From the NCBI GenBank assembly GCA_010093745.1, contig MU006002.1, positions 1-64,000 of the forward strand: a DNA stretch of 64,000 nt, given 5' to 3'. Position 1 is the stretch's first letter. Each line of letters starts with the position of its first letter. The notes beneath the pieces are model-generated. The model was given only the letters and a program-made list of their open reading frames with translations. It did no database searches and was not told where the DNA came from. Shown in pieces: positions 1-64,000 of the stretch. A program made the position numbers and the translations under genes. The DNA is from Piedraia hortae CBS 480.64 (taxonomy: Eukaryota).

Positions 1-913
1 TTATTAGTAACCGTCGCTCGGCTCTCGACTTCACGCGTCAACTAGTTTTCCGTAGAGATTTGTATGCAGGTACACATCTGCTCACAATTATAATAGGATC
101 GCGACGGGTCGGGCCGGCGGGGTTTAGCTTCATGCACTCGAGTTTTGGTTTTGGGTTCTGGTGGGTCTAGATAGAGGGATCCATTGGCAGAACATACCAA
201 TTATTGCTACGACCTGTGTTGCTTGGCTGTACATTCGCCTTTCCCCTTGAACAATGGCTGTGCTTCTTGAGTATTCAATCGCTAGCTAAGTGAGGTGAAC
301 TTTATCATTTCAGCGCAGATTTTGGTGGTTATCACATAACAGGGAACTTGCGTTCATCCTCATGGGATGACATCTTCGCAATTCCCACTGAGATATGCAA
401 CACCTTCATGCCATGGATCGTTCTTTTTGGGAAATAGCAACGGTGACGATGGGTTGGGTCGATGGGATTAGATAGATCGGTACTGCCAGTGGAATACAAG
501 CCGCAAAGGCTGGACGTAGTAGTATACAGAGGAAAACGAGTGATCAAACCGATGGAAGGATGTCCTTCAATCGGCCATCAATTTTCTGCAGCCGGACCAG
601 ACCCTGCTTCTCTTTTGGTGTAAAAGCTATCTTTATATGCAGCTATGATCCAGATGGAACAACCGCTTGACGGGCCAACGGATCTTTGTAATTCTGCAGT
701 AAGTTGTTCAGCAGCCGCAGGAACCTCCGTTCGATGGGCTTCTTGCAGCCTGCACATACCGGCTGCGGGCCTCTTGTCGATACTTTTTGCACAGAAAGCC
801 TCTTCCCCTCGGTTTGACCTTCGGGGCTGTTTCTCCCTTGGCTGGCCTCCGCTTCTTGTTGCCCATGAGAGGAGGAAGAAGAGACTGCTTCAACTCCGCT
901 GGGGCTTGCGGTC

Positions 914-1150
914 AAGACGTGCAGTCTCGGTCAAAGAGTGTGTGTAACTGTATACGTCTCTACGTGCTAAGAGCTAACACAACGTCTTCCACAGGCCCAC
1001 AGCTGGGCCAGAACCGCATTTACCGAGACCACGCGATGACGTGATCTCGTCACAGGAGAAAACTCCTCTATGCGGCAGAAACCCCTGCGAAGCCTCGGGC
1101 GTTCTAACTACCACCGATCGAACTCATCTGGCACAGGGCTCACCGTGCTA
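914..1150. repeat. Dispersed ~235-bp repeat (possible solo LTR or element end), copy 1
   Basis: Aligns by eye, in direct orientation, with 62975-63206 (TGTAACTGT..ACGTCTCTACGTGCTAAGAGCTAAC ... GGGCTCACCGTGCTA). Contains a TGTAAC...CACA stretch reminiscent of LTR termini. Confidence 0.8.
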
Positions 1151-1720
1151 GCGGCTTGGTGGCATTGGCATCTTGGGCTTGCACCTGTTCGGCATCTCCT
1201 TGCCGAATGGCAGCGTACGATGCATTTGACCGACGGTACCAAACATGACTTATGCTGAAGACAGCTTTCTTGTAGTTTGTCCTCATGTGCCATATACACT
1301 TTTCGAGCACGGGGACAAGTTCGTGTCCACGATCAGGGACCTGATGATGTCCGCATACACAGTGCCAATCAAAGCCACGTGAGTAGGTCTCTACCCATAC
1401 GAGCAGAACATCCTGCCCCCAATCGCCTGAGCCCTCGCGTACTCCCCCCATGATGTGCGGTGGCTCCACGCCCTCTGTCCAGATCCTCGCTCAGGCCATG
1501 GCTGCGATAGTTTACAGGGTCAGGATCAAAGCCACGAACAAGAAGGGCATGTCAAATGCGTGCGTCGTCCCGACCGAAGCCGAGTTGGTGGCGACCTTCA
1601 CGACGTTGCTCAGGTGCTCGTACATGTGCACGGCTGTGGGCGTGGCCTTCGTCAACTGCGTCCCTGTGCCTGTGCCCACGATGGCGAGGAAGATGGCGGT
1701 TCTTCATCTACCCCACGCTT
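1140..1720 (-). pseudogene. Disrupted unknown ORF of the element (gene F)
   Basis: GC3-rich frame reads TAIFLAIVGTGTGTQLTK...LILTL*TIAAMA*ARIWTEGVEPPHIMGG...WHCVCGHHQ...; it has two in-frame stops and runs into the ORF at 1140-1469. Confidence 0.5.
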
Positions 1721-1729
1721 GCGATCACC

Positions 1730-1771
1730 CTCCATGGAGTTAGGCAGCTGCTTGGTTGCCCTCGGCCTCGG
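1730..1771 (-). CDS. Capping enzyme fragment 3 (candidate nucleotidyltransferase motif VI)
   Basis: PRPRATKQLPNSME fits the RxxKxxPN pattern of motif VI, which is expected right after fragment 2 (ending ...IINPK). Confidence 0.5.
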
Positions 1772-1880
1772 AAGATAGAGACCAGTGTGCTCTTGTGCTA
1801 AGTCGTTGTGTGTAGTCATTATTTTAAGATCAAGCATTTTTCCGATTGTCGGTTTGCATGTCGGAAGACTGGCCGAGGTA

Positions 1881-2594
1881 TTACGTTGCATGCTCGAAGA
1901 CAGCATATATGATAAAGTCGGTCTTCCTGGCCTCCTTCTTGAATAGGCCCTTGTCGATGTTTGATACATTCTCAAAGGTCACTATTTCTGTACGTTTGTC
2001 ACTCCCTGTATTGATGGATACTCCCGCAGATGGGGTATCTCGGTCTGGTCTCATGTATCTTCTTCATATTGATAGTCAGCCTTGTCTTGCCAGACGGGAA
2101 GCTGAATCTAGGTATGTTATTCTCAAACTGCCGGTATACGCCTTTGCCGTTCAGACGTGTCCAGAAGCATACTGCCCCCACAGCAGGCACAAACGACTGC
2201 TGGTAGCTCATCGGCTGGCTTAGAATCATATGAAGCGGTTCATCATCAGACACATACAGTCTGATATTAATGGGCCTTGACTCGCCATTGGTATTCCGTC
2301 TGAAGTATATGACCTTGATCCCGTTGTCACTCGTCAGTTGCTCAATCGTATCCACTCCGCGAGACTGCTTCGTGCCTACGATGAACCCATTGGAGTCGTA
2401 CCTATTGCAGCAGAAGAAGTCCCATGGGGCATCCGAGATTTCGCATATCGGGTAAAAGAACGACGTAGCCTGCACGCCACCCAGCACAACACGATGATTG
2501 AACAATCAGCTTGATCAGCATAGTGGAATTTACTGCTACTGGGTACAGGAGACTGATGGGGCTATGTAGCTCATCGATAGGCTCCCTGCATAGC
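1881..2594 (-). pseudogene. Unknown element protein (gene E); lacks its own start here and has two apparent frameshifts
   Basis: Three frames appear to join: LCREPIDELHSPISLLYP... / FNHRVVLGG...KTRLTINMKK (ORF 1999-2505) / YMRPDRDTPSAG...FIIYAVFEHAT* (stop at 1881-1883). Confidence 0.5.
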
Positions 2595-2764
2595 CTTGGG
2601 GTTGATGATCCTGACCGCGCCGCCGTCCCCTTCCACCACGTCCAGCTCGTAGACCGCGTACTCGTCCATCTCCGCACACCTGCTCATGACCTCGAACATG
2701 GTCGGCCCTGCGATCGCGTACAACGTGCCACCCTTGTGGATGAGGTCGATCGTGGGCCGCTTAA
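2595..2764 (-). CDS. Capping enzyme fragment 2 (motif V and OB-fold region)
   Basis: KRPTIDL...AVYELDV...VRIINPK resembles guanylyltransferase motif V (K..TID) and the following VxE strand. Codon third positions switch abruptly to G/C, as in fragment 1. Confidence 0.7.
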
Positions 2765-3317
2765 AGTTCTCGTCGCACCAGGTCGTATCGAATCTCTTCC
2801 TCAGACCCAGTATGTGCTCCATTCTCGTTCTAGACTCCTCGGCAAATAGTGGTGGGTCGACATTATCCTTGATTTGCTTGAATGAAAATGTCGTATGTTT
2901 CATGTACCCCATTGTCGAATCGTCTCCATCGTAAAGCTCGGATGACTTGTATCTGGCGCATGCCAGATCTAGTTTCCTGTGGGGAGTATTGATCCATTGC
3001 TCGCACTCTTCTATGCCTTCTTTGGAGCGAATGACATAGATATGCATCTCATCACCATCATAGTCTCCTTTGAGTGGACCAACAAGCTTGGGTGATACTC
3101 CCATGCATGTCTTGTTCCAGAACGAGAGGGTAACAGGTTGGATGGACTCCTGGTGGAGTGTCGGTGGCCTTAAGGCGATTGCACGCTCTCCTTCTTGTAC
3201 ACATCCCGACACATATCTCTGGGTTTTCTCGTCGAATCCGACCACCCTCCATTTATCACGAAGATACTCCGGGATAAAGATGATTCTATGGTCATATGTG
3301 TGAGGGGCAATGAGTAC
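2765..3317 (-). CDS. RNA polymerase beta-prime/RPB1-like subunit, fragment 2 (catalytic double-psi barrel)
   Basis: ALRPPTLHQESIQP...VGPLKGDYDGDEMHIY corresponds to the conserved NRxPTLH...NADFDGDEMN segment. DYDGD lies at about 3051-3065. No stop precedes the junction with capping fragment 2. Confidence 0.9.
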
Positions 3318-4232
3318 GACGTCAGCGCATCGTTGGCGGCTCAATCAGCCTCCGCTACAGGTACTAACACCCCTATGACGCTGCTTATGGATATAAGGCA
3401 ATTGATCAATGAGCAAACCGGAGTCATAAGAAGTATACTCGATCAACAGACAAGTAATATGGAACTCATGAAACGTATGCATAATGAGATTATAGCTTAT
3501 ATGCAAGAACTATCGCAATCTATGAGACAGACAAATCATCGGGTCGTTGGTACGAGCAATGGAATTATGTCTGAGTCACCACATAATAGTAAATGGTATC
3601 ATATTGGTGACCCAGTTGACAATTCGAGTAAAGTAGTGGCATGTTTACTTATACAGCTAGAGAAACTCGCATCACGGGACTCTGGCAATAGACCATCAGT
3701 CGGTGATTTTGACACAATGTCGATGGAACTCCGGGACTGGGCTGCAATAGTGAAAGCTATATGTAGAGCAGAGTCTACAGTGACAACACAAACAGGAAAG
3801 ATTGCACTCCCGAAAATATCGTCAAATGAGGCACAGTATGCTCTCAACGTTGTCACTAGCCCTACACCAGGTAGACATATCACATGTAAACCTAATCAAT
3901 ATCGGGACCTAGTAATAAATTGCCCTGGCCTCATTGGTTGCCTAGAAGAAGTGAGACTTCGTATAACTAAATGTCCAGGAATTGTAGGCAGAAGAACAGC
4001 TAGGGCACTTGCATCGATATCGTTTCCCTATGTAAATGAACACAATGATGTCATCAACTCAGATGTAATGAACAAGGGCACTGGTAACACTGTGGTAATG
4101 GACAAGGTACGTAGACTAAACATACCACAGAAGGAGATATACATATCACTGATTTTAAGAGATAACAAACGTCCCATGGCTGCTGCAGAGGAGGCATCTC
4201 GTTACACTAGGCGTATAACTACGGGCAGTTAG
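3310..4232 (+). CDS. Unknown element protein (gene D), N-terminal coiled coil
   Basis: Long open frame (3195-4232 in the track). True start is either ATG 3376, or ATG 3310 with a 1-nt frameshift (MSTTS-ASLAAQSAS...). Overlaps the stop of the convergent ORF. Confidence 0.65.
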
Positions 4233-5031
4233 TATCTATCCAGTGAGCTATGGGACTGCTGGCGTCAAGAATACCAGTCTCCACCCCCAACGCCTCTCTT
4301 ACCGAGTTGGTCTCATCGCTAGAGTGATGTAAACGAATCGTCCTTATGGCAGATCTAGCCAGCGATGATTGCGCGCGACGGGACTTCACGGCTTCTGTTA
4401 AAAACTTGATGGATGTGTCATTACGACAGTCATCGTTATCATCAGCTATGTATGCCGCAAGATACTCTAGATCACGAGCCTCAGCATCTGTTAGCGATAC
4501 TTCGTCGCTATTATCGGCAGAACTGAGCACAATGGTCTCGTTATCTTCGGCGACTGGGGCAAACCCAACAGACCGTGACGTTCTCGACATACCTGATACT
4601 GACCGAGTCGCGGCCACAGGTTGACATGCAGGTTCAGCGACAGGCTGCGAACTCGATAGTGACGATGTATCACTATCATTTGCAAACCCGATCATCTTTC
4701 TCGGCGTGTTGCTGATAGACGTAGCTCGGGACACAGTGCCACCGATATTTGGCTGTGGCACATATTCTTTTCGCCTGCTCATATACGATGGCTTGGCGAC
4801 GTTGGCTGGCTCGTTGATGCTAATAAAAGACAGTCTTACTCGAAGATCCATCATGGTCTTTACGACCAAGCGCATGTCTTCTTTAGCTCTCCGGCATATG
4901 GCTTCCGCATCGTCAACAGCCTTACCTTCGTCTAGCCCTTTGAACACACGCTCCATCTCGTCGAACCTGTCGACCATTGAGTTGCACGCTGATGCTGTGT
5001 TGGCTAGGCTGTTGTCAACGTTGTCCGACAT
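4219..5031 (-). CDS. Unknown element protein (gene C), coiled coil plus Ser-rich linker
   Basis: Intronless ~270-aa ORF from ATG 5031 (MSDNVDNS...), convergent with gene D. Confidence 0.65.
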   Translation of the reverse strand: MSDNVDNSLANTASACNSMVDRFDEMERVFKGLDEGKAVDDAEAICRRAKEDMRLVVKTMMDLRVRLSFISINEPANVAKPSYMSRRKEYVPQPNIGGTVSRATSISNTPRKMIGFANDSDTSSLSSSQPVAEPACQPVAATRSVSGMSRTSRSVGFAPVAEDNETIVLSSADNSDEVSLTDAEARDLEYLAAYIADDNDDCRNDTSIKFLTEAVKSRRAQSSLARSAIRTIRLHHSSDETNSVREALGVETGILDASSPIAHWIDTNCP

Positions 5032-5126
5032 ATTGTGATAGTCTGACTCAGTGTACTCTCTCTTGCCAATGGTTTCGGTGATCACTCTCTCGAGATATCT
5101 AACCGTTGCAATTCCACCAAGCGTGA

Positions 5127-5531
5127 TACCATCCTGAGACTTCCATCAACATGGCAATTGAGAATGCCTGATCTCATCCGACCGGTTTTGGCCTTCATTG
5201 CATCGAGCAGTATCTTTTTTGATTTGCCTTTGTGGAATTTGGAGGATCCCTGGAACGCAAACGATGCAGCACGGGCAACATCGTTCCTGATGACGGGCGT
5301 GTCGATCGCGAGCGACTGCGACGGAAGCATAACTCCTGACGGTAACTTGCACATGTGGCCAAGGCAGTCATCATGGATTGGACATTTCCTCATGTAGTCG
5401 TTGCATGAAGCTATGTTCATGGTGCTCACATTCCCCATATCGAGTCTCGAGTGACCGATGCCTATGATGATCCAGTCATCTGATGGGTCGAAGCCATCAT
5501 AGACGAGCCTCTCGACTTTGAATTCCTCCAT
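5127..5531 (-). CDS. RNA polymerase beta-prime/RPB1-like subunit, fragment 1 (zinc clamp and switch region)
   Basis: MEEFKVERL...CNDYMRKCPIHDDCLGH resembles the RPB1 C..C...CPGH clamp. MKAKTGRMRSGILNCHVDGSLRMV resembles LKGKxGRxRxNLxGKRVDxSxRxV. Confidence 0.8.
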
Positions 5532-5533
5532 TG

Positions 5534-6752
5534 TAATGGTGGTCCTGAGCTTATTCGTGAGCACCACCCCGTCGTTAGGCATAGGCTCGAGGACCAGCTG
5601 CGTCGTGGTCGGGAGTGCGTTCCAGGCCGTGCGGTAGATGAAGAACGTCTTTCTGGTCGTGCTCGGGCACTTGGAGAGGCCCATGCACTTGGGGATCCTC
5701 GCGTCGGCGTCCATGGCGAGCGTCTCGACGTAGACCAGGCTCCCGTCATTCATCATCTCTGCGAGGACAACGTCGGGTCTGGACGTGATTGGAGGCAGGT
5801 CGCTATGCGCGATCGTCGCCATGCACGCCACCACACTCAGGCTCGGGTCCGTGATCGTTACTATGTACCCGAACTCGTAGCAGAACACGTACACTTTCAT
5901 CCCGTCGGCCTTGGCCAAGAGCACGCCGTTGTAGACACTCACGTCCGGAGCATCAACAACCACATGATCGTTGGACCTGACCGCGGGCATGAACTCAGTG
6001 TCAACCACGTCCCGCATCATGTTGACGGTCCCGACGGTACTCAGGGCCATGCACAAGACTGCCCTCACGACGGGGCCTGTGGAGCTGCCCACAATCTCGA
6101 ACTCGGCCGCATACGTGACCCTGTTCGCGCAGATGTACTTCCTCGCAATCGCGTTCGTGGTGATGCCCCTCACCATCAAGACACACTTGACCTCGACCAT
6201 CTCGACGTCCCTCTGCGCGTGTCGGATTGTGCCCCCAAGGGCGTACTCGCGTGACACAGCCAGTGTGGATCCGGGTGCAATCGTGGTTGTGCTTAGGCCG
6301 ATCTTCATGGTCGTCTCCCCGTTCGACCTTATCCTCATCCTCGCGATCGTGTTGGTCTCCGGGCCCATCCAGACGATGCAAACCCTCTCCCTGATCCTGG
6401 CTGTGGTTACGTCTCCGAACTCGCCCCTGCCCATCATCGTGAACATACGCTCGGACAAGTTCGCGTTCAGCCTCATCTCCACCTCCTCGGTGGGCCTGGC
6501 GTCGACGTCCCTCACGGACATCGGCTCGACGTTGAAGTAGCTGCTCATGTCGGCGGTGCTCTGCATGCTCAGCCTCATCGCCATGTCCGTCTCGGTGACC
6601 TTCGCCGCAACCGAGGACATCACCGTGGCCGGATCCCTACACTTGTACAGGATGGGCTCGGGTGGCTCGTCGAGACCGAGGCGGACGTGAGCGAACCTCA
6701 CTCTCGCAGGGTCTCTGCTCTCGTTGCAAATCGGGCAGATGTGCGACTCCAT
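5534..6752 (-). CDS. mRNA capping enzyme fragment 1 (triphosphate-tunnel-type RNA triphosphatase plus guanylyltransferase motifs I-IV)
   Basis: EEVEMR, VSRE and AAEFEI fit triphosphate-tunnel glutamate motifs. LAKADG is motif I KxDG (5901-5912), VLAEM motif III and NDGVVL motif IV. Architecture recalls baculovirus LEF-4 and the poxvirus D1 N-terminus. Confidence 0.8.
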
Positions 6753-6831
6753 CCTCGTGCTCGGGCACGGGCAGCCGCTTGGCTCGCTGTCTGGTACCTA
6801 GTGACCACGGACCTGGGACGAGCGTGTCGAC

Positions 6832-7041
6832 ATGTGCATGGTGAAGTACGTCGTGTGTGGGACGTGCCAGACGACCATCAAGGTGTACGTGAGTAGGTGC
6901 GTGCACTAGAACCCGTCGTGCACTGCGATCGTAGACAAGGCCACGAGCACGCGTAGGAACGTGGAGAACGTGTCGGTCGCTGTGGCGGCTGTGATGCCGT
7001 GTGTGATTACGTCCGCGTGCACCGCGTGCTCCTCCGGCTAG
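6832..7041 (+). pseudogene. Small Cys-rich putative zinc-binding protein with an internal TAG
   Basis: MCMVKYVVCGTCQTTIKVYVSRCVH*NPSC...CVITSACTACSSG*. TAG at 6907-6909; high GC3. Confidence 0.55.
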
Positions 7042-7166
7042 GAAACGACGGGCCTGTTCCACGATCGCGTGCACGTTCAAAACCCCGCTGACAGTCATCA
7101 TCGGCTGCGAACCACTCGTTGCTCAACTACGCACTGCCACCCGCGATCTCACACAATGACGTCGCC

Positions 7167-7655
7167 ATGTGCCGCTTCAGAATCATGGTGTGCCGCTAGC
7201 ATGGGCACGAGATCGTGAGTAGGATGTGGTTTTGCGACGCGATCAAGAACGGCTACCTGTGCGTGGACCCGGCCAGGACCATGTTGAACTTCTCGAGCTT
7301 GTGCATACCTGCCGGGGCCCCGATCGGCTACGTGAACGCGTCCTTGTCCGTGGTTGCCCTTAGGGCGAGAGTCCAGCCCGTTGTGATGGCGATCCAGTGC
7401 GACGTCGGATTCGTTTTCACGAAGATGGGGATGAACCTCAATGCGATGATCAAGATGGAGAGCGTCCGGTCCACGTACCCGGGCATGTCCATGCCTCAGA
7501 CCTCGGATATGGTCAAGGGCGTGCACCACAGAGATGATGGTACGCCTGCCGGTTGGAGGTCGCGGTTGGGACCATCCACCAAATCGGAGAGCAGCACCGC
7601 GGACAGCATCGCGGACAGGGTGATCATCTTGGAGAGCGATGACGACTCGGAATAG
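7167..7655 (+). pseudogene. Element protein with an MC...C N-terminus, acidic C-terminus and an internal TAG
   Basis: MCRFRIMVCR*HGHEIVSRMWFCD... is in frame with ORF 7215-7655. TAG at 7197-7199. Confidence 0.55.
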
Positions 7656-8769
7656 AACCTCCACACGGCGGCCCGCCGGTTGATGGGACAAGCACAAGAA
7701 AAAAGCCACACAGTGAATGAAACGGCCTACGTCTTGCAGTGTCTCGCAAACTCCCAGGTGAGACGCGGCGAGATGGAAAAGGGCCCACAGCCTCTTGTCA
7801 TCCATAGGTACCCATTCGTCCGCTTACTCTCCCTCATGCGAGAGAGGGTTTGGCGTGAGTGCACCTGGTACCATTGGCGGCTGTTCAAGCAGTAGCCCAG
7901 AATCAGTATTCCTTGTGCTTCTACGTGTTACGAAACGCCAGCCTTGCCTTTCCCCAGCAGGGCTAGTGAATCACGTGCGCGGCCTATTTTCCTCAGGTAG
8001 GACGTTCGAGACGCAGTTCCAGTCGAACTTGTATGGTAGATGAAGGAACGTGTAGCGATAGTGCTCTCGTGGATGGGAGTGCGCAGCGGCCCGAACTAGG
8101 AGGACGTAGCGATAGACAGTGTCGATATGACAGTGTGTATGACTATATGTATCTGTGAGGAGACGTCAGAATAAAACTTCTGTACCTGTGGGCCGGTGAC
8201 GTCACGTCGTACGCTAACAGGGCGCATTCGCCATGTTACATATGACATGACCCTGAGGGAAAAACTCTGTGAAGGAAAAACCCTAGGGTGCAGCTGGTAG
8301 TGTAGGAGGTATCGCTGACTCGCTATGCAAGTGCCCCGCATACGCGCTAGCGGCGATGCTTGAATCCAACAGAACGAACGACGACAAAGCATCTCCCACA
8401 GGACGAAAAACACGTCACGGCGAGGTTATCCACATCCCAAAATACTGTTATGGCACCGTCTGATGCCACACAAGTACCTAGTCCGCATTGCTTTAAACAC
8501 CGGATCAGCCAGGAGCATTACAATGCTCGAGTTCGCCGAAACCCGTAGAGAGCTTGATCCAGTGTCCATGCCATCCCTTTTGTGGATGTCCGGGAGGTTG
8601 ATAAGTGTAGATCGTCCAGCGGCGTATCTGTGTAGCTGCCATTCATGATACGAGTGGAAATCAGCACCAGGAACAGAGGAACGTGAAAGGGGCCAGTCCG
8701 AGATAGAGAGAGGGCCGACGTATGGCTAAGTGTAGCCGCGACAGCTGCCCCTGTTACAATTGGTGATTT

Positions 8770-10269: not shown

Positions 10270-10870
10270 CGCTTTTGGTCGGATCCTTTACGCAATCCGG
10301 ACAATCAAATCTCACTAGTATCGGATCGTTTTACTTTATTTGTTTTCCATTTTACGTCTATGGGTGGGTCATAGCTCCTAATGAGCTTATGCGCGGCCTC
10401 TGATGGGCGTTAGTCGGCACCACGCGCAAGCTCGGATCGTTACACGCGTTCCGAGAATCCAATTTTACTTGTGTCGGATTGCTGTACACGATCCGGATCA
10501 TCCAGTTTCACTTTCCACGGATCCCTATGCATGATCCGAAAACCCAAATCCCACCTTTCTCGGGTTGTTATACGCGATCCGGACTATCTAGTTCCACTTC
10601 CTGGAAAACACTTACATGTGGAAACAGAGCTACAACCGTTAAATGAGTTAACACGGCACCTAAATAGGTTGACAACGAATCAGAATAAGAACTGATGGAA
10701 TTTCTTACCAGAAGAAAGTTTTTTTGATCTTTTACAGGTCTTTCCAGATATGTTGATGTAGCTGCTACAATGAGTCACGACTGTTCAACTACAACAGATA
10801 TGTAGCTGCTACAACTAGTTACTACTTCTCAATTACAGCTACGTTGTCTGCTACATCACCACTCCTCTCC
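10270..10870. repeat. Clustered short motifs (CGGATC/ATCCGG; palindromic TGTAGCTGCTACA x2), probable DNA-transposon subterminal relics
   Basis: Many GGATC/ATCCG motifs at 10278-10585. ATGTAGCTGCTACAA occurs twice, near 10757 and 10800. Confidence 0.35.
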
Positions 10871-62974: not shown

Positions 62975-63206
62975 AAGACGTGAAGTCTGGGACCAAAGGT
63001 ATGTGTAACTGTGTACGTCTCTACGTGCTAAGAGCTAACGCAACGTCTTCTACAGACCCACAGTTCGCCAGACCGCATTTGCCGAGACCACGCGATGACG
63101 TGATCTCGTCACAGAAGCAAACTCCTCTGAGGCAGAAAACCCTGCGAAGCCTCGGGCGTTCTAACTTCACCGATCTAACTCATCTGACACAGGGCTCACC
63201 GTGCTA
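62975..63206. repeat. Dispersed ~235-bp repeat, copy 2
   Basis: Direct-orientation match to 914-1150. Confidence 0.8.
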
Positions 63207-64000
63207 TCTTCTTGGCTTTGGCCGTGCGGTAAATCTTCATCCACGTGTTCAACCTCTGCTTGATCATTTTTATACGTCGTTAATTCTCCAATTCCCAGCC
63301 AACTCGTGTAGGCCAGGACCTAAGAGCTGGGTTTTGCATTTAGTGATGTTTGCGACTCTTCGCGGAAACGAAGGAGCTTGTTCAGTTTACTGTCGTCCCA
63401 GAAATCTCTGGTACGTGTCGACGGCCTGCCAAACTGTTTTTGATCCAGGGAAAATACTTTCTTCTCTAGCCGGTTCCTGGTAAACTTGACGATGAAATGA
63501 TCGTCTGCACTGCCGCATGAGGGTAGCTCGGAGTGTTAAAGAGATGTGGCTTGCTTCTTTCATTACTTTAATTTGCCTTCGCTCTGCATTCTCCGACTCG
63601 ATTTGCGCCTCACCTCCCCATCGCTATATAGAAGGGCTATAGAAGGGCTATTGATATGAAGAAGCTCAGATTTTGCTCGAGGTGACCAACGCGCACGTGG
63701 AGCTGGAGAATCTCGTCCTTGCGCTCGGCGATATTGTCCTTTACAATGCAGGTAGTCAAGCGCTGCTTCACGCAGTCCCTCTTGATCTCAGACAGGTTTA
63801 TTGACTTCTGAGCATTTGAGTCCTCAAACCGAGCTTCTTGGCCTCGTAGCCTGACTGCACAAGCTATGACCATCTTCCAGGAGCCATAATATCCAGTTGT
63901 GGCAAGCCTCCGAAACCTAGCAGAATATCTTTAACTCCCCGAGCTTGGATCTTTTCTGCCACCACACGTGCAGTCGATTCTCCAGCAACATAGCGTAAGA

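Follow-up and report, generated by a model that had tools for sequence, protein, structure and literature searches.

A probable nested mosaic of gene fragments from DNA virus-like or plasmid-like elements with their own transcription machinery in Piedraia hortae

Layout and base composition of the locus

The window analysed here is a stretch of 64,000 nucleotides from Piedraia hortae CBS 480.64. Close to one end lies a set of interrupted genes for transcription proteins, the order on the minus strand being capping enzyme 1-418, RNA polymerase (RNAP) 1-135, a 1.8-kb segment carrying two truncated genes, RNAP 136-318, capping enzyme 419 to about 480, a stop and a cut piece of a fifth gene. The arrangement is nested, and the interrupted capping-enzyme and RNAP genes each resume exactly at their own break-off point. 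The features are as follows.

1999..2505, minus: fragment Y, corresponding to residues 177-337 of a 396-aa ORF on the related metagenome contig L015 (tblastx; tblastn E 1e-37, 41% identity)
2571..2762, minus: capping-enzyme tail, residues about 419-480 followed by a stop (tblastn of P0008 residues 418-475 on 2765..2595; alignment)
2763..3311, minus: RNAP codons 136-318 (Pfam PF00623, E 1.6e-7; PDB matches; tblastn; alignment)
3312..5126, no strand: the interruption, two convergent, N-terminally cut gene pieces of element origin
3318..4232, plus: ORF Z, homologue of a family of 334-338 aa, first 26 residues missing
4123, minus: poly(A) addition site of the transcript 8080..4123 (contig of run X2 with 24 untemplated T; no genomic A/T run there)
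4219..5126, minus: ORF W, listed as 288 aa from 5085, frame open to the junction, sense to the polyadenylated transcript
5127..5531, minus: RNAP codons 1-135 (tblastn with 6/6 relatives; alignment; profile match to Rpo1N/RPB1)
5532..6752, minus: capping-enzyme front, N-terminal 407 codons (phmmer and tblastn to a family of ~730 aa)
6753..7800, no strand: GC-rich stretch preceding the capping-enzyme start on its upstream side; GC here varies strongly with period 3

Internal stops are absent from every piece of the mosaic. The locus is adjoined by fungal nuclear genes (GCN1, DEAH helicase, cullin and Rap1), and P0001, an annotated protein of this strain, is assembled from pieces of these ORFs. 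The GC content at third codon positions (GC3) is 0.85/0.86 in the capping-enzyme pieces, 0.61/0.54 in the RNAP pieces and 0.51 and 0.37 in W and Z, respectively, compared with 0.60-0.63 in four host genes. This sharp contrast between the layers (0.85, 0.54-0.61 and 0.37-0.51) suggests different donors. The high-GC codon position of the outer layer carries on over 6753-7050 and a new phase follows over 7100-7800, and the stretch upstream of the capping-enzyme start probably consists of further coding remnants of the outer GC-rich donor. The donors themselves are unseen, and one donor genome with internally varying GC3 is an alternative to several.

A miniature beta-prime-like polymerase within a capping-enzyme gene

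An earlier note on this DNA had described a minimal RPB1/beta-prime-like polymerase split inside a conserved motif, and both parts of that description hold. Each of the six full-length relatives (P0002-P0007) matches the window in exactly two tblastn blocks, which is far beyond chance. With P0002 the first block places residues 1-135 on 5531..5127 (87% identity, E 7e-75) and the second places residues 134-323 on 3317..2748 (81% identity, E 1e-107), and the break falls between ...GSLRMV and IAPH..., where the relatives show a continuous GSLRMV-I(T/S)P motif. On the minus strand, ORF 5082-6752 terminates ...CHVDGSLRMVSRLVELQRLDISRE* and ORF 2571-3344 includes ...VLIAPHTYDHRIIFIP...RPPTLH...GDYDGDEM. 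Upstream of part 1, about 407 codons of the former ORF are capping enzyme rather than polymerase, and part 1 is in frame with them. Over 317 columns the window copy is 85.2% identical to P0002, and 39 of 40 family-conserved columns are kept.

Part 1 carries a Cys/His cluster, C-x2-H-x2-C-x2-H, followed by K-x-G-R-x-R ... D-G-S-L-R-M-V; the residues C50, H53, C56 and H59 are family-conserved and all retained in the window copy, and a PDB sequence search with part 1 alone gave no match. Part 2 carries R-P-P-T-L-H and the catalytic D-Y-D-G-D-E (3065-3048), which in PDB alignments falls on DFDGD of NRPE1, NRPD1 and RPB1, and its match to PF00623 is above the cut-off. The homology is corroborated at the level of the family, whose profile matches archaeal Rpo1N and RPB1 (E 4e-19) from family position 107 on, at Rpo1N 296-478 and RPB1 337-505. 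The same profile places GSlRlvItp on FSARTVISPDP, in line with the proposed correspondence to the conserved R.VI.PDP strand. The predicted structure of the family (pLDDT 75.8) gave the largest RNAP subunits in 50 of 50 Foldseek matches listed, and a VIA fold search aligned model residues 19-587 on RPB1 15-1467 with Z of about 17 (16-17.6).

The miniature size that had been proposed is borne out by the full-length relatives, which range from 582 to 603 aa. The polymerase is also, as suggested, distinct from host Pol I, II and III, since identity to host-type Pol subunits is 10-17% in structural alignments and the window copy is 85% identical to a separate 587-aa protein. In the full-length relatives D-x-D-G-D-E is followed by a long helix (311-350 in their model) and by a Q-Q-x-x-L-D-S-H-R-A stretch, two features that, from the alignment, may be read as bridge helix and trigger loop. 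As the model contains this helix and the fold alignment reaches RPB1 1467, the family itself probably has both elements.

The window copy is another matter. Relatives' residues beyond about 320-360 have no tblastn match anywhere in the 64-kb window; a further piece is thus missing, as anticipated, and the C-terminal piece that was to be sought is not in the window. What is lacking is the C-terminal 270 aa of about 590, that is, the bridge-helix and trigger-loop part. The joined protein of about 320 aa had been described as having no stop, but it runs in frame into 63 capping-enzyme codons and stops at 2571. Its zinc clamp and double-psi barrel are read separately, and it has lost the bridge helix and the trigger loop. 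To judge from its sequence, the window copy is therefore a broken remnant, dead as a polymerase and no functioning split gene. The translatable product is a chimera of 556 aa, made of the capping-enzyme front and the RNAP N-terminus. The stop-free pieces and the retention of nearly all conserved RNAP residues mean that the RNAP piece bears no positive sign of long neutral decay.

The enclosing gene was recognized by its own relatives. A phmmer search returned 171 proteins at E<=1e-3, which fall into two families with the split at query residue about 408. The capping-enzyme front spans two parts, the tunnel domain of the triphosphatase and the nucleotidyl-transferase part, which contains K-A-D-G; it matches residues 2-450 of P0008 (E 1e-114), and the family alignment covers P0008 residues 6-418. 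By tblastn the capping enzyme matches the window at 6764..5436 and 2765..2595, and in the alignment the front ends at residue 418 and the tail picks up at 419. The methyltransferase third is absent from the window. The best Foldseek match of the family model is the vaccinia D1 capping enzyme, full length (E 1.8e-18), with separate domain matches to guanylyltransferase, N7-methyltransferase and tunnel triphosphatase structures. K292, D294 and G295 are invariant in the family. The predicted structure thus points to a trifunctional D1-type capping enzyme of about 730 aa, combining triphosphatase, guanylyltransferase and N7-methyltransferase. The family gave no sequence match to solved structures (PDB) or to Pfam families, and its profile none in the viral contig collection. 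The window copy is altered at the conserved sites C41Y, G129V and Y186R.

Two related contigs show the company that such genes keep. L015 encodes a family-B DNA polymerase (PF00136, nearest to archaeal PolB and Pol alpha), RNAP, an RNaseH-NADAR protein, a primase-helicase-like protein without a PDB sequence match, and PIF1. L038 encodes a beta-like protein of 801 aa, a capping enzyme, PIF1 and a beta-prime-like protein. The gene for the last of these is separate from the beta-like ORF (PF00562 E 4e-9, PF04560 E 3e-6), which is placed upstream of it at a distance of about 3.8 kb. A beta-like partner, which had also been sought, is missing from the window but present on this related contig. The GC content of the related contigs is 39-50%. 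Models for the giant-virus capsid (PF04451) and the packaging ATPase (PF04665) had no match in assembly G001; the capsid control was also silent, which makes this result uninformative.

In the viral contig collection the RNAP profile found only distant giant-virus polymerases (14 loci, 23-38% identity over short stretches). Neither a ~590-aa beta-prime-like family nor an element of this kind in Pezizomycotina was described in the part of the literature that was searched, in which subscription papers are under-represented.

Transcription, assembly and the nature of the interruption

At 10362-10413 run X2 shows a GT..AG joint of 50 nt, which the DNA run X1 lacks, and from this spliced joint and the untemplated tail X2 behaves as RNA. 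Its contigs cover 4123-8080, ending in the 24-nt untemplated tail, and 1665-3452. No joint across the insert was found in X2, and no contig joins the two RNAP halves. The word depth of the transcript contig is 696. A gene in use and a fossil expressed by accident would fit this value equally well, contig depth being unable to rank expression. Bins 1201-1600 and 3601-4000 of X2 are without cover, a gap on which no weight is placed.

The persistence of an open and transcribed reading frame raises the question of whether the fungus has exapted the 556-aa chimera as a host gene, for instance to interfere with infecting relatives. The ORF is intact over 556 codons, a polyadenylated transcript covers it, and GC3, at 0.85, is higher than in the host genes that were compared. 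Against this, over 1.3 kb of the transcript contig precedes the annotated start, and the ORF departs from the capping-enzyme family at conserved residues, among them an invariant cysteine and the R in R-x-K. We regard exaptation as unlikely, though it is the best surviving of the alternatives to a nested mosaic of element fragments.

The interruption had been presented as two complete convergent ORFs with GTA at both ends. The ORFs are indeed convergent, but incomplete, Z lacking its first 26 codons and the frame of W being open to the junction. GTA does occur on the minus strand, once at 5129-5127 and once at 3317-3315; the latter copy is, however, equally the reverse of a TAC codon of the plus-strand insert gene and hence no reliable duplication. 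No terminal repeats or convincing duplication were found at the insert ends. ORF Z has four relatives (48-53% identity over 98-99% of the query), encoded on contigs of 24-32 kb, the same size class as the RNAP-family contigs, and its profile had no match in the viral contig collection. For W no relatives were found and the protein atlas gave no usable match, and PHROGs gave none for W, Z or Y.

These data bear on the idea that a transposon or other autonomous mobile element entered the polymerase gene and duplicated 3 bp of target, GTA, in doing so. The GTA at both ends and the two ORFs within would fit, as would the weak likeness of Z to clusters of retrotransposon Gag in the protein atlas, whose score of about 0.82 is below the usable level. 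Yet neither terminal inverted nor direct repeats were found, neither ORF matches a transposase, integrase or reverse-transcriptase family, Z is cut at the junction with its relatives on contigs of the RNAP-family size class, and the segment is single within the window. Such an insertion is therefore improbable. The simpler picture implied by the earlier note, of one gene and a discrete mobile insert or intron with GTA ends, gives way to that of a fragment from a related element: the RNAP fragment is itself nested in the capping-enzyme gene, the interruption contains the end of the transcript, and none of the RNA contigs links its two sides. The interruption is a further element fragment, neither intron nor transposon.

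An assembly chimera, in which the nested order would stem from joining free-element and chromosome reads, might be suspected because there are repeats on either side of the block and the unitigs of both runs stop at them. This is very improbable, as two runs from two studies are colinear across 5531, 5127, 3311, 2763 and about 2550, and the DNA depth equals that of flanking host contigs. The DNA contig 1665-8079 is colinear with the window and has a depth of 11.7 compared with 12.3 for the flanking host contig, and X2, from the second study, spans every junction. The linkage of 1665-8079 to host genes crosses repeats at 1605-1694 and 8051-8370 and rests on the original assembly and the equal depth. 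A joint from 95 to 8318 in X1 was rejected as spurious, one side having 27 letters and no repeat being present between 1-600 and 7900-8600.

A functional polymerase gene split by an intron, an intein or trans-spliced pieces, with its halves joined at the RNA or protein level, can practically be dismissed: the break is clean with no codon lost and the end of part 1, G-T-A-T-C-A, resembles a 5′ splice site, but there is no frame-keeping AG at the 3′ junction, a stop 14 codons into the insert excludes an intein, a search of 1500-8500 with Rfam (0 matches at E<=0.1) detected neither a group I nor a group II intron, the RNA contig runs colinearly past the 5′ junction to its poly(A) site in the insert without any joint, the C-terminal 270 aa are absent, and within the insert lies a truncated relative of a different element gene.

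Origin of the mosaic and relation to known elements

The most plausible explanation of these observations, to which we assign a probability of about 0.78, is that the locus is a nested endogenous mosaic, put together from pieces of DNA virus-like or plasmid-like elements with transcription machinery of their own. The donor machinery would have comprised a beta-prime-like subunit (~590 aa), a beta-like one (~800 aa) and a triphosphatase-guanylyltransferase-methyltransferase resembling vaccinia D1. The element DNA, supplied by three or more different donors, may have been captured serially at double-strand breaks, either in the chromosome or in an already integrated element copy, and joined by end joining with neither loss nor duplication of the target. 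Counting against capture, both RNAP/capping-enzyme junctions are in frame and the inserted piece begins within a few codons of the RNAP start, a combination somewhat unexpected if insertion was random; for the two in-frame junctions by themselves chance would give about 1 in 9. The lack of a positive sign of long neutral decay in the RNAP piece likewise weighs against this explanation.

The motif order of the polymerase is that of the largest RNAP subunits in general, i.e. bacterial beta-prime, archaeal Rpo1, eukaryotic RPB1/RPA1/RPC1, plant NRPD1/NRPE1 and poxvirus Rpo147: an N-terminal Cys/His cluster, K-x-G-R-x-R...S-x-R-x-V-I-x-P, R-P-P-x-L and the D-x-D-G-D-E metal site. These subunits are 1,200-1,900 aa long, whereas the family has about 590 aa and is devoid of a CTD or large lineage-specific inserts. 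Small beta-prime-like and beta-like subunits beside a capping enzyme on a non-cellular DNA element are otherwise found in baculoviruses (LEF-9/LEF-8/LEF-4) and yeast killer plasmids (virus-like elements, VLE). The VLE transcription module has a fused beta/beta-prime large subunit and goes with a protein-primed DNA polymerase on AT-rich linear plasmids with terminal repeats. Stripped-down subunits and a neighbouring capping enzyme are common to these systems and the present family, a likeness of description and not of direct sequence comparison. The VLE gene set is taken as given in PMC13348850. Pfam LEF-9 was unmatched at E<=0.1 in 5/5 family members, with library filters that drop weak matches, and one of 12 capping-enzyme relatives touches the LEF-4 model (E 0.08). 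Furthermore, the DNA polymerase on L015 is an RNA/DNA-primed type of family B (PF00136), in contrast to the protein-primed VLE enzyme, and a further point of difference is the methyltransferase domain carried by the capping enzyme of the element family. This enzyme resembles vaccinia D1 and ASFV NP868R, with the same fold of triphosphatase tunnel, guanylyltransferase and N7-methyltransferase and with an NP868R domain among the matches, and differs from D1 in having one more Cys cluster at its N-terminus.

Fragments of element replication and transcription genes are likewise placed in fungal chromosomes by NCLDV-like endogenous elements and by captured DNA of plasmids or viruses. Endogenous NCLDVs have been described in seven fungal phyla (PMC7017919), a paper in whose main text the term 'Ascomycota' does not occur. 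From Pezizomycotina, VLE-derived toxin clusters have been reported (PMC13348850); according to that account the integrations there are toxin clusters and not housekeeping genes, and no free VLE was ever encountered in the group. The pieces in Piedraia hortae, by contrast, are housekeeping genes of a different, miniature type, and they are nested.

One may further speculate that filamentous ascomycetes are present or recent hosts of an undescribed NCLDV-like clade with a tiny two-subunit polymerase (about 800 + 590 aa) and a D1-like capping enzyme, and that the locus is a graveyard of at least three lineages, nested and still expressing a chimeric ORF; this wider proposal is tentative, and we hold the odds to be somewhat against it. 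As of 2023 no double-stranded DNA virus of fungi was known according to PMC10640383, and later work reports giant viruses of zoosporic fungi (PMC13533422).

The locus is decayed, and it is the element family that is of interest. The RNAP family packs a zinc clamp, a catalytic barrel and an apparent bridge helix and trigger loop into about 590 residues, and together with its 800-residue partner it represents a natural minimal RNAP of the multisubunit type that is open to expression and structure solution. If the wider proposal above is true, the polymerase would be among the smallest two-subunit beta/beta-prime enzymes known. For the fungus, the locus is direct evidence of encounters, apparently repeated, between a filamentous ascomycete and DNA elements that bring a polymerase and a capping enzyme of their own.

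A split polymerase nested in a capping-enzyme gene

The locus encodes a split homologue of the beta-prime/Rpb1 subunit of RNA polymerase, accompanied by pieces of other genes:

5082-6752, minus strand: ORF of 556 aa with C-terminal ...CHVDGSLRMV, then 14 unrelated codons and a stop
2571-3344, minus strand: ORF of 257 aa containing ...VLIAPHTYDHRIIFIP...RPPTLH...GDYDGDEM
4219-5085, minus strand: ORF W, within the 1.8-kb insert between the polymerase parts
3195-4232, plus strand: ORF Z, within the same insert
2505-2032: truncated homologue of a 396-aa ORF on L015, a related metagenome contig, downstream of the polymerase and capping-enzyme pieces

Part 2 of the polymerase, in the 257-aa ORF, matches Pfam RNA_pol_Rpb1_2 above threshold (E 1.6e-7), and its RPPTLH...DYDGDE aligns with the active-site loop of plant Pol V/IV and Pol II subunits. 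Six longer relatives (582-603 aa) were found, and each matches the window in just two blocks; in the relative P0002, residues 1-135 correspond to 5531..5127 and residues 134-323 to 3317..2748. The sequence ...GSLRMV-I(T/S/G)P... is unbroken in all six, which bears out the observation in the earlier note that the polymerase is split inside a conserved motif. The motif equivalence proposed there also agrees with a profile of 18 family members, which matches archaeal Rpo1N and RPB1 (E 4e-19) and places the family's GSlRlvItp onto FSARTVISPDP. The whole content of the window copy is polymerase residues 1-318, with 85.2% identity to P0002. It keeps 39 of 40 strongly conserved family columns, the exception being a D to E change preceding the RPP motif, and the C-terminal ~270 residues of the relatives have no match anywhere in the 64 kb.

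All 50 matches listed by Foldseek for the AlphaFold model of P0002 (pLDDT 75.8) were largest RNA polymerase subunits. Model residues 19-587 align with RPB1 residues 15-1467 (Z 16-17.6), and the family thus reproduces the entire RPB1 core in miniature. In its C-terminal region we read from the alignment a putative bridge helix and a trigger-loop-like QQxxLDSHRA. The protein has the defining features tested of the beta-prime/Rpb1 superfamily, works like its members and belongs to no host polymerase. The earlier note was right to identify it as a minimal beta-prime-like polymerase that is not the host's.

Within the ORF that contains part 1, the 407 codons 5′ of it come from a different protein family. 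When the 556-aa ORF was used as query in an exhaustive search, 171 proteins reached E<=1e-3; they form two groups, one of ~730 aa matching query residues 1-~440 and the other the ~590-aa polymerase relatives (query 408-544). Neither Pfam nor a sequence-level PDB comparison gives a match for the ~730-aa family. Its model (pLDDT 75.7) matches vaccinia D1, a capping enzyme, along the full length (E 1.8e-18) and also has separate matches to guanylyltransferases, tunnel triphosphatases and cap N7-methyltransferases, the ASFV NP868R domain among these last. After the polymerase piece, 63 codons (2762-2574) continue the same capping enzyme. Since the front runs to residue 418 of the family and the tail resumes at 419, the polymerase fragment is nested in the capping-enzyme gene, in frame at both ends. 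The idea of a single gene divided by an insert was too simple. The capping-enzyme gene terminates after the tail, and its methyltransferase third is absent.

The N-terminal CxxC...CxC of the capping-enzyme family may be a zinc ribbon. A hint of this is that the N-terminal Cys cluster of one relative (locus L025, 1177-3414, minus strand) touches the TFIIS zinc ribbon PF01096 at E 9e-4, below the cut-off. The annotated gene model, a hypothetical protein of Piedraia hortae CBS 480.64 (P0001), is stitched from pieces of the two minus-strand ORFs (5082-6752 and 2571-3344). It excises polymerase and insert (5508-2763) as a 2.7-kb GT..AG 'intron', which accidentally rejoins both capping-enzyme pieces, and also drops ~200 codons of the triphosphatase domain; neither joint is supported by an RNA contig.

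The insert and its compositional layers

ORF Z has four relatives (334-338 aa, 48-53% identity), each encoded on a contig of 24-32 kb. The window copy starts precisely on the junction, with the residue that is number 27 in these relatives. ORF W has no known relatives, and its frame is open as far as the other junction. Because ORF Z is cut and the ORF W frame runs open to the junction, the insert consists of element DNA in which two convergent genes keep their 3′ parts; its source is an element broadly of the same kind. The GTA at the right insert end can be read as codons of the ORF Z gene, and we give it no weight; if so read, the insertion was exact, with polymerase sequence neither lost nor duplicated.

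GC3 is 0.85 and 0.86 in the front and tail of the capping-enzyme gene, 0.61 and 0.54 in polymerase parts 1 and 2, 0.51 in ORF W (minus strand), 0.37 in ORF Z (plus strand) and 0.60-0.63 in four host genes. The halves of each interrupted gene are alike and differ from what separates them, as serial insertion from different donors predicts. A GC-rich period-3 signal extends 5′ of the capping-enzyme start to ~7800; in 6753-7800 it is strong, keeping the same phase to ~7050 and taking a new one in 7100-7800, where a plus-strand ORF (7215-7655) is open. This stretch is likely to hold further coding remnants of the GC-rich donor.

Transcription, integrity and alternative explanations

The most plausible explanation, to which we assign a probability of about 0.78, is an endogenous mosaic of nested pieces that grew as element DNA was captured repeatedly; it is dead as a polymerase and yet transcribed. 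Each new piece would have landed inside the previous one by end joining.

Transcription is indicated by a run of the same organism from a second study (X2), which behaves as RNA: it has a 50-nt GT..AG joint at 10362-10413, apparently an intron, that is missing from the DNA run (X1), patchy cover and untemplated T. Its label as RNA is a guess. One X2 contig is colinear with 4123-8080 and preceded by 24 untemplated T, so the minus-strand transcript is polyadenylated at 4123, 96 nt past the ORF W stop. A second covers 1665-3452, and no X2 contig joins across the insert or the whole polymerase piece. An intact ORF on a polyadenylated transcript might suggest an exapted chimeric gene; this is improbable, however, given the loss of conserved residues, the capping-enzyme copy being altered at the family-invariant sites C41Y, G129V and Y186R and carrying I for the R of R-x-K. 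An autonomous transposon is still less probable, as the insert lacks terminal repeats. There is very little to favour an assembly chimera: X1 gives a single colinear contig over 1665-8079, which shows that assembly did not create the internal order, and the contig's depth of 11.7, against 12.3 in the adjoining host contig, places the block at chromosome copy number. An intron, intein or trans-splicing can practically be dismissed, since the polymerase frame stops 14 codons into the insert, no AG stands at the required 3′ end and Rfam gives no match to the insert.

The block edges are repeats where contigs break, and linkage to host genes rests on the original assembly. Word depth in 1-400 and 8001-8400 is 3,220-66,710 in both runs, against ~12 close by, and 8371-8374 is where many contigs diverge. 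The two segments are high-copy repeats bounding the element-derived block. A 246-bp direct repeat (914-1159 and 62975-63215, 88% identity) joins both window ends. Elsewhere the window carries the ordinary fungal nuclear genes GCN1, DEAH helicase, RabGAP, RasGEF, cullin and Rap1.

Related elements and significance

Besides a full-length polymerase relative (45% identity), the metagenome contig L015 (31.4 kb, GC ~39%) encodes an RNA/DNA-primed family-B DNA polymerase, a PIF1 helicase, an RNaseH-NADAR protein and a protein resembling a primase-helicase. The contig ends inside the polymerase gene, and the element therefore exceeds 31 kb. A second contig (L038; 10,116 bp, 50% GC) is part of an assembly that bears the title Streptomyces fumigatiscleroticus JCM 3101, whose rpoC region has 66% GC, and may be a contaminant or that organism's element. 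Its genes begin with an 801-aa beta/Rpb2-like ORF (PF00562 E 4e-9, PF04560 E 3e-6), followed by a relative of the capping enzyme (745 aa), then a PIF1 helicase and lastly a beta-prime-like ORF of 648 aa; the assembly has a further small contig with a DNA-polymerase relative. The beta-like partner sought in the earlier note is thus present in the family and absent from the window. Beside the beta-like gene, two adjoining minus-strand ORFs (199 and 230 aa, at 1-1388) appear by eye to be paralogues of each other, and neither has a family match.

Baculovirus LEF-9/LEF-8/LEF-4 and the yeast killer-plasmid module may be comparable in size and gene neighbourhood; Pfam LEF-9 gave no match in the members of the polymerase family scanned, and killer plasmids differ from L015 in DNA polymerase type. 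In the literature searched, of incomplete coverage, no description of this miniature polymerase family was found. Endogenous giant-virus DNA is reported in several fungal phyla in a paper whose main text lacks the word Ascomycota (PMC7017919), and for Pezizomycotina another (PMC13348850) reports virus-like plasmid toxin clusters 'but not housekeeping genes'. A viral fossil, broken and nested, the locus points to an element family with a miniature two-subunit RNA polymerase, probably undescribed, and is evidence that a filamentous ascomycete came into contact with DNA elements.
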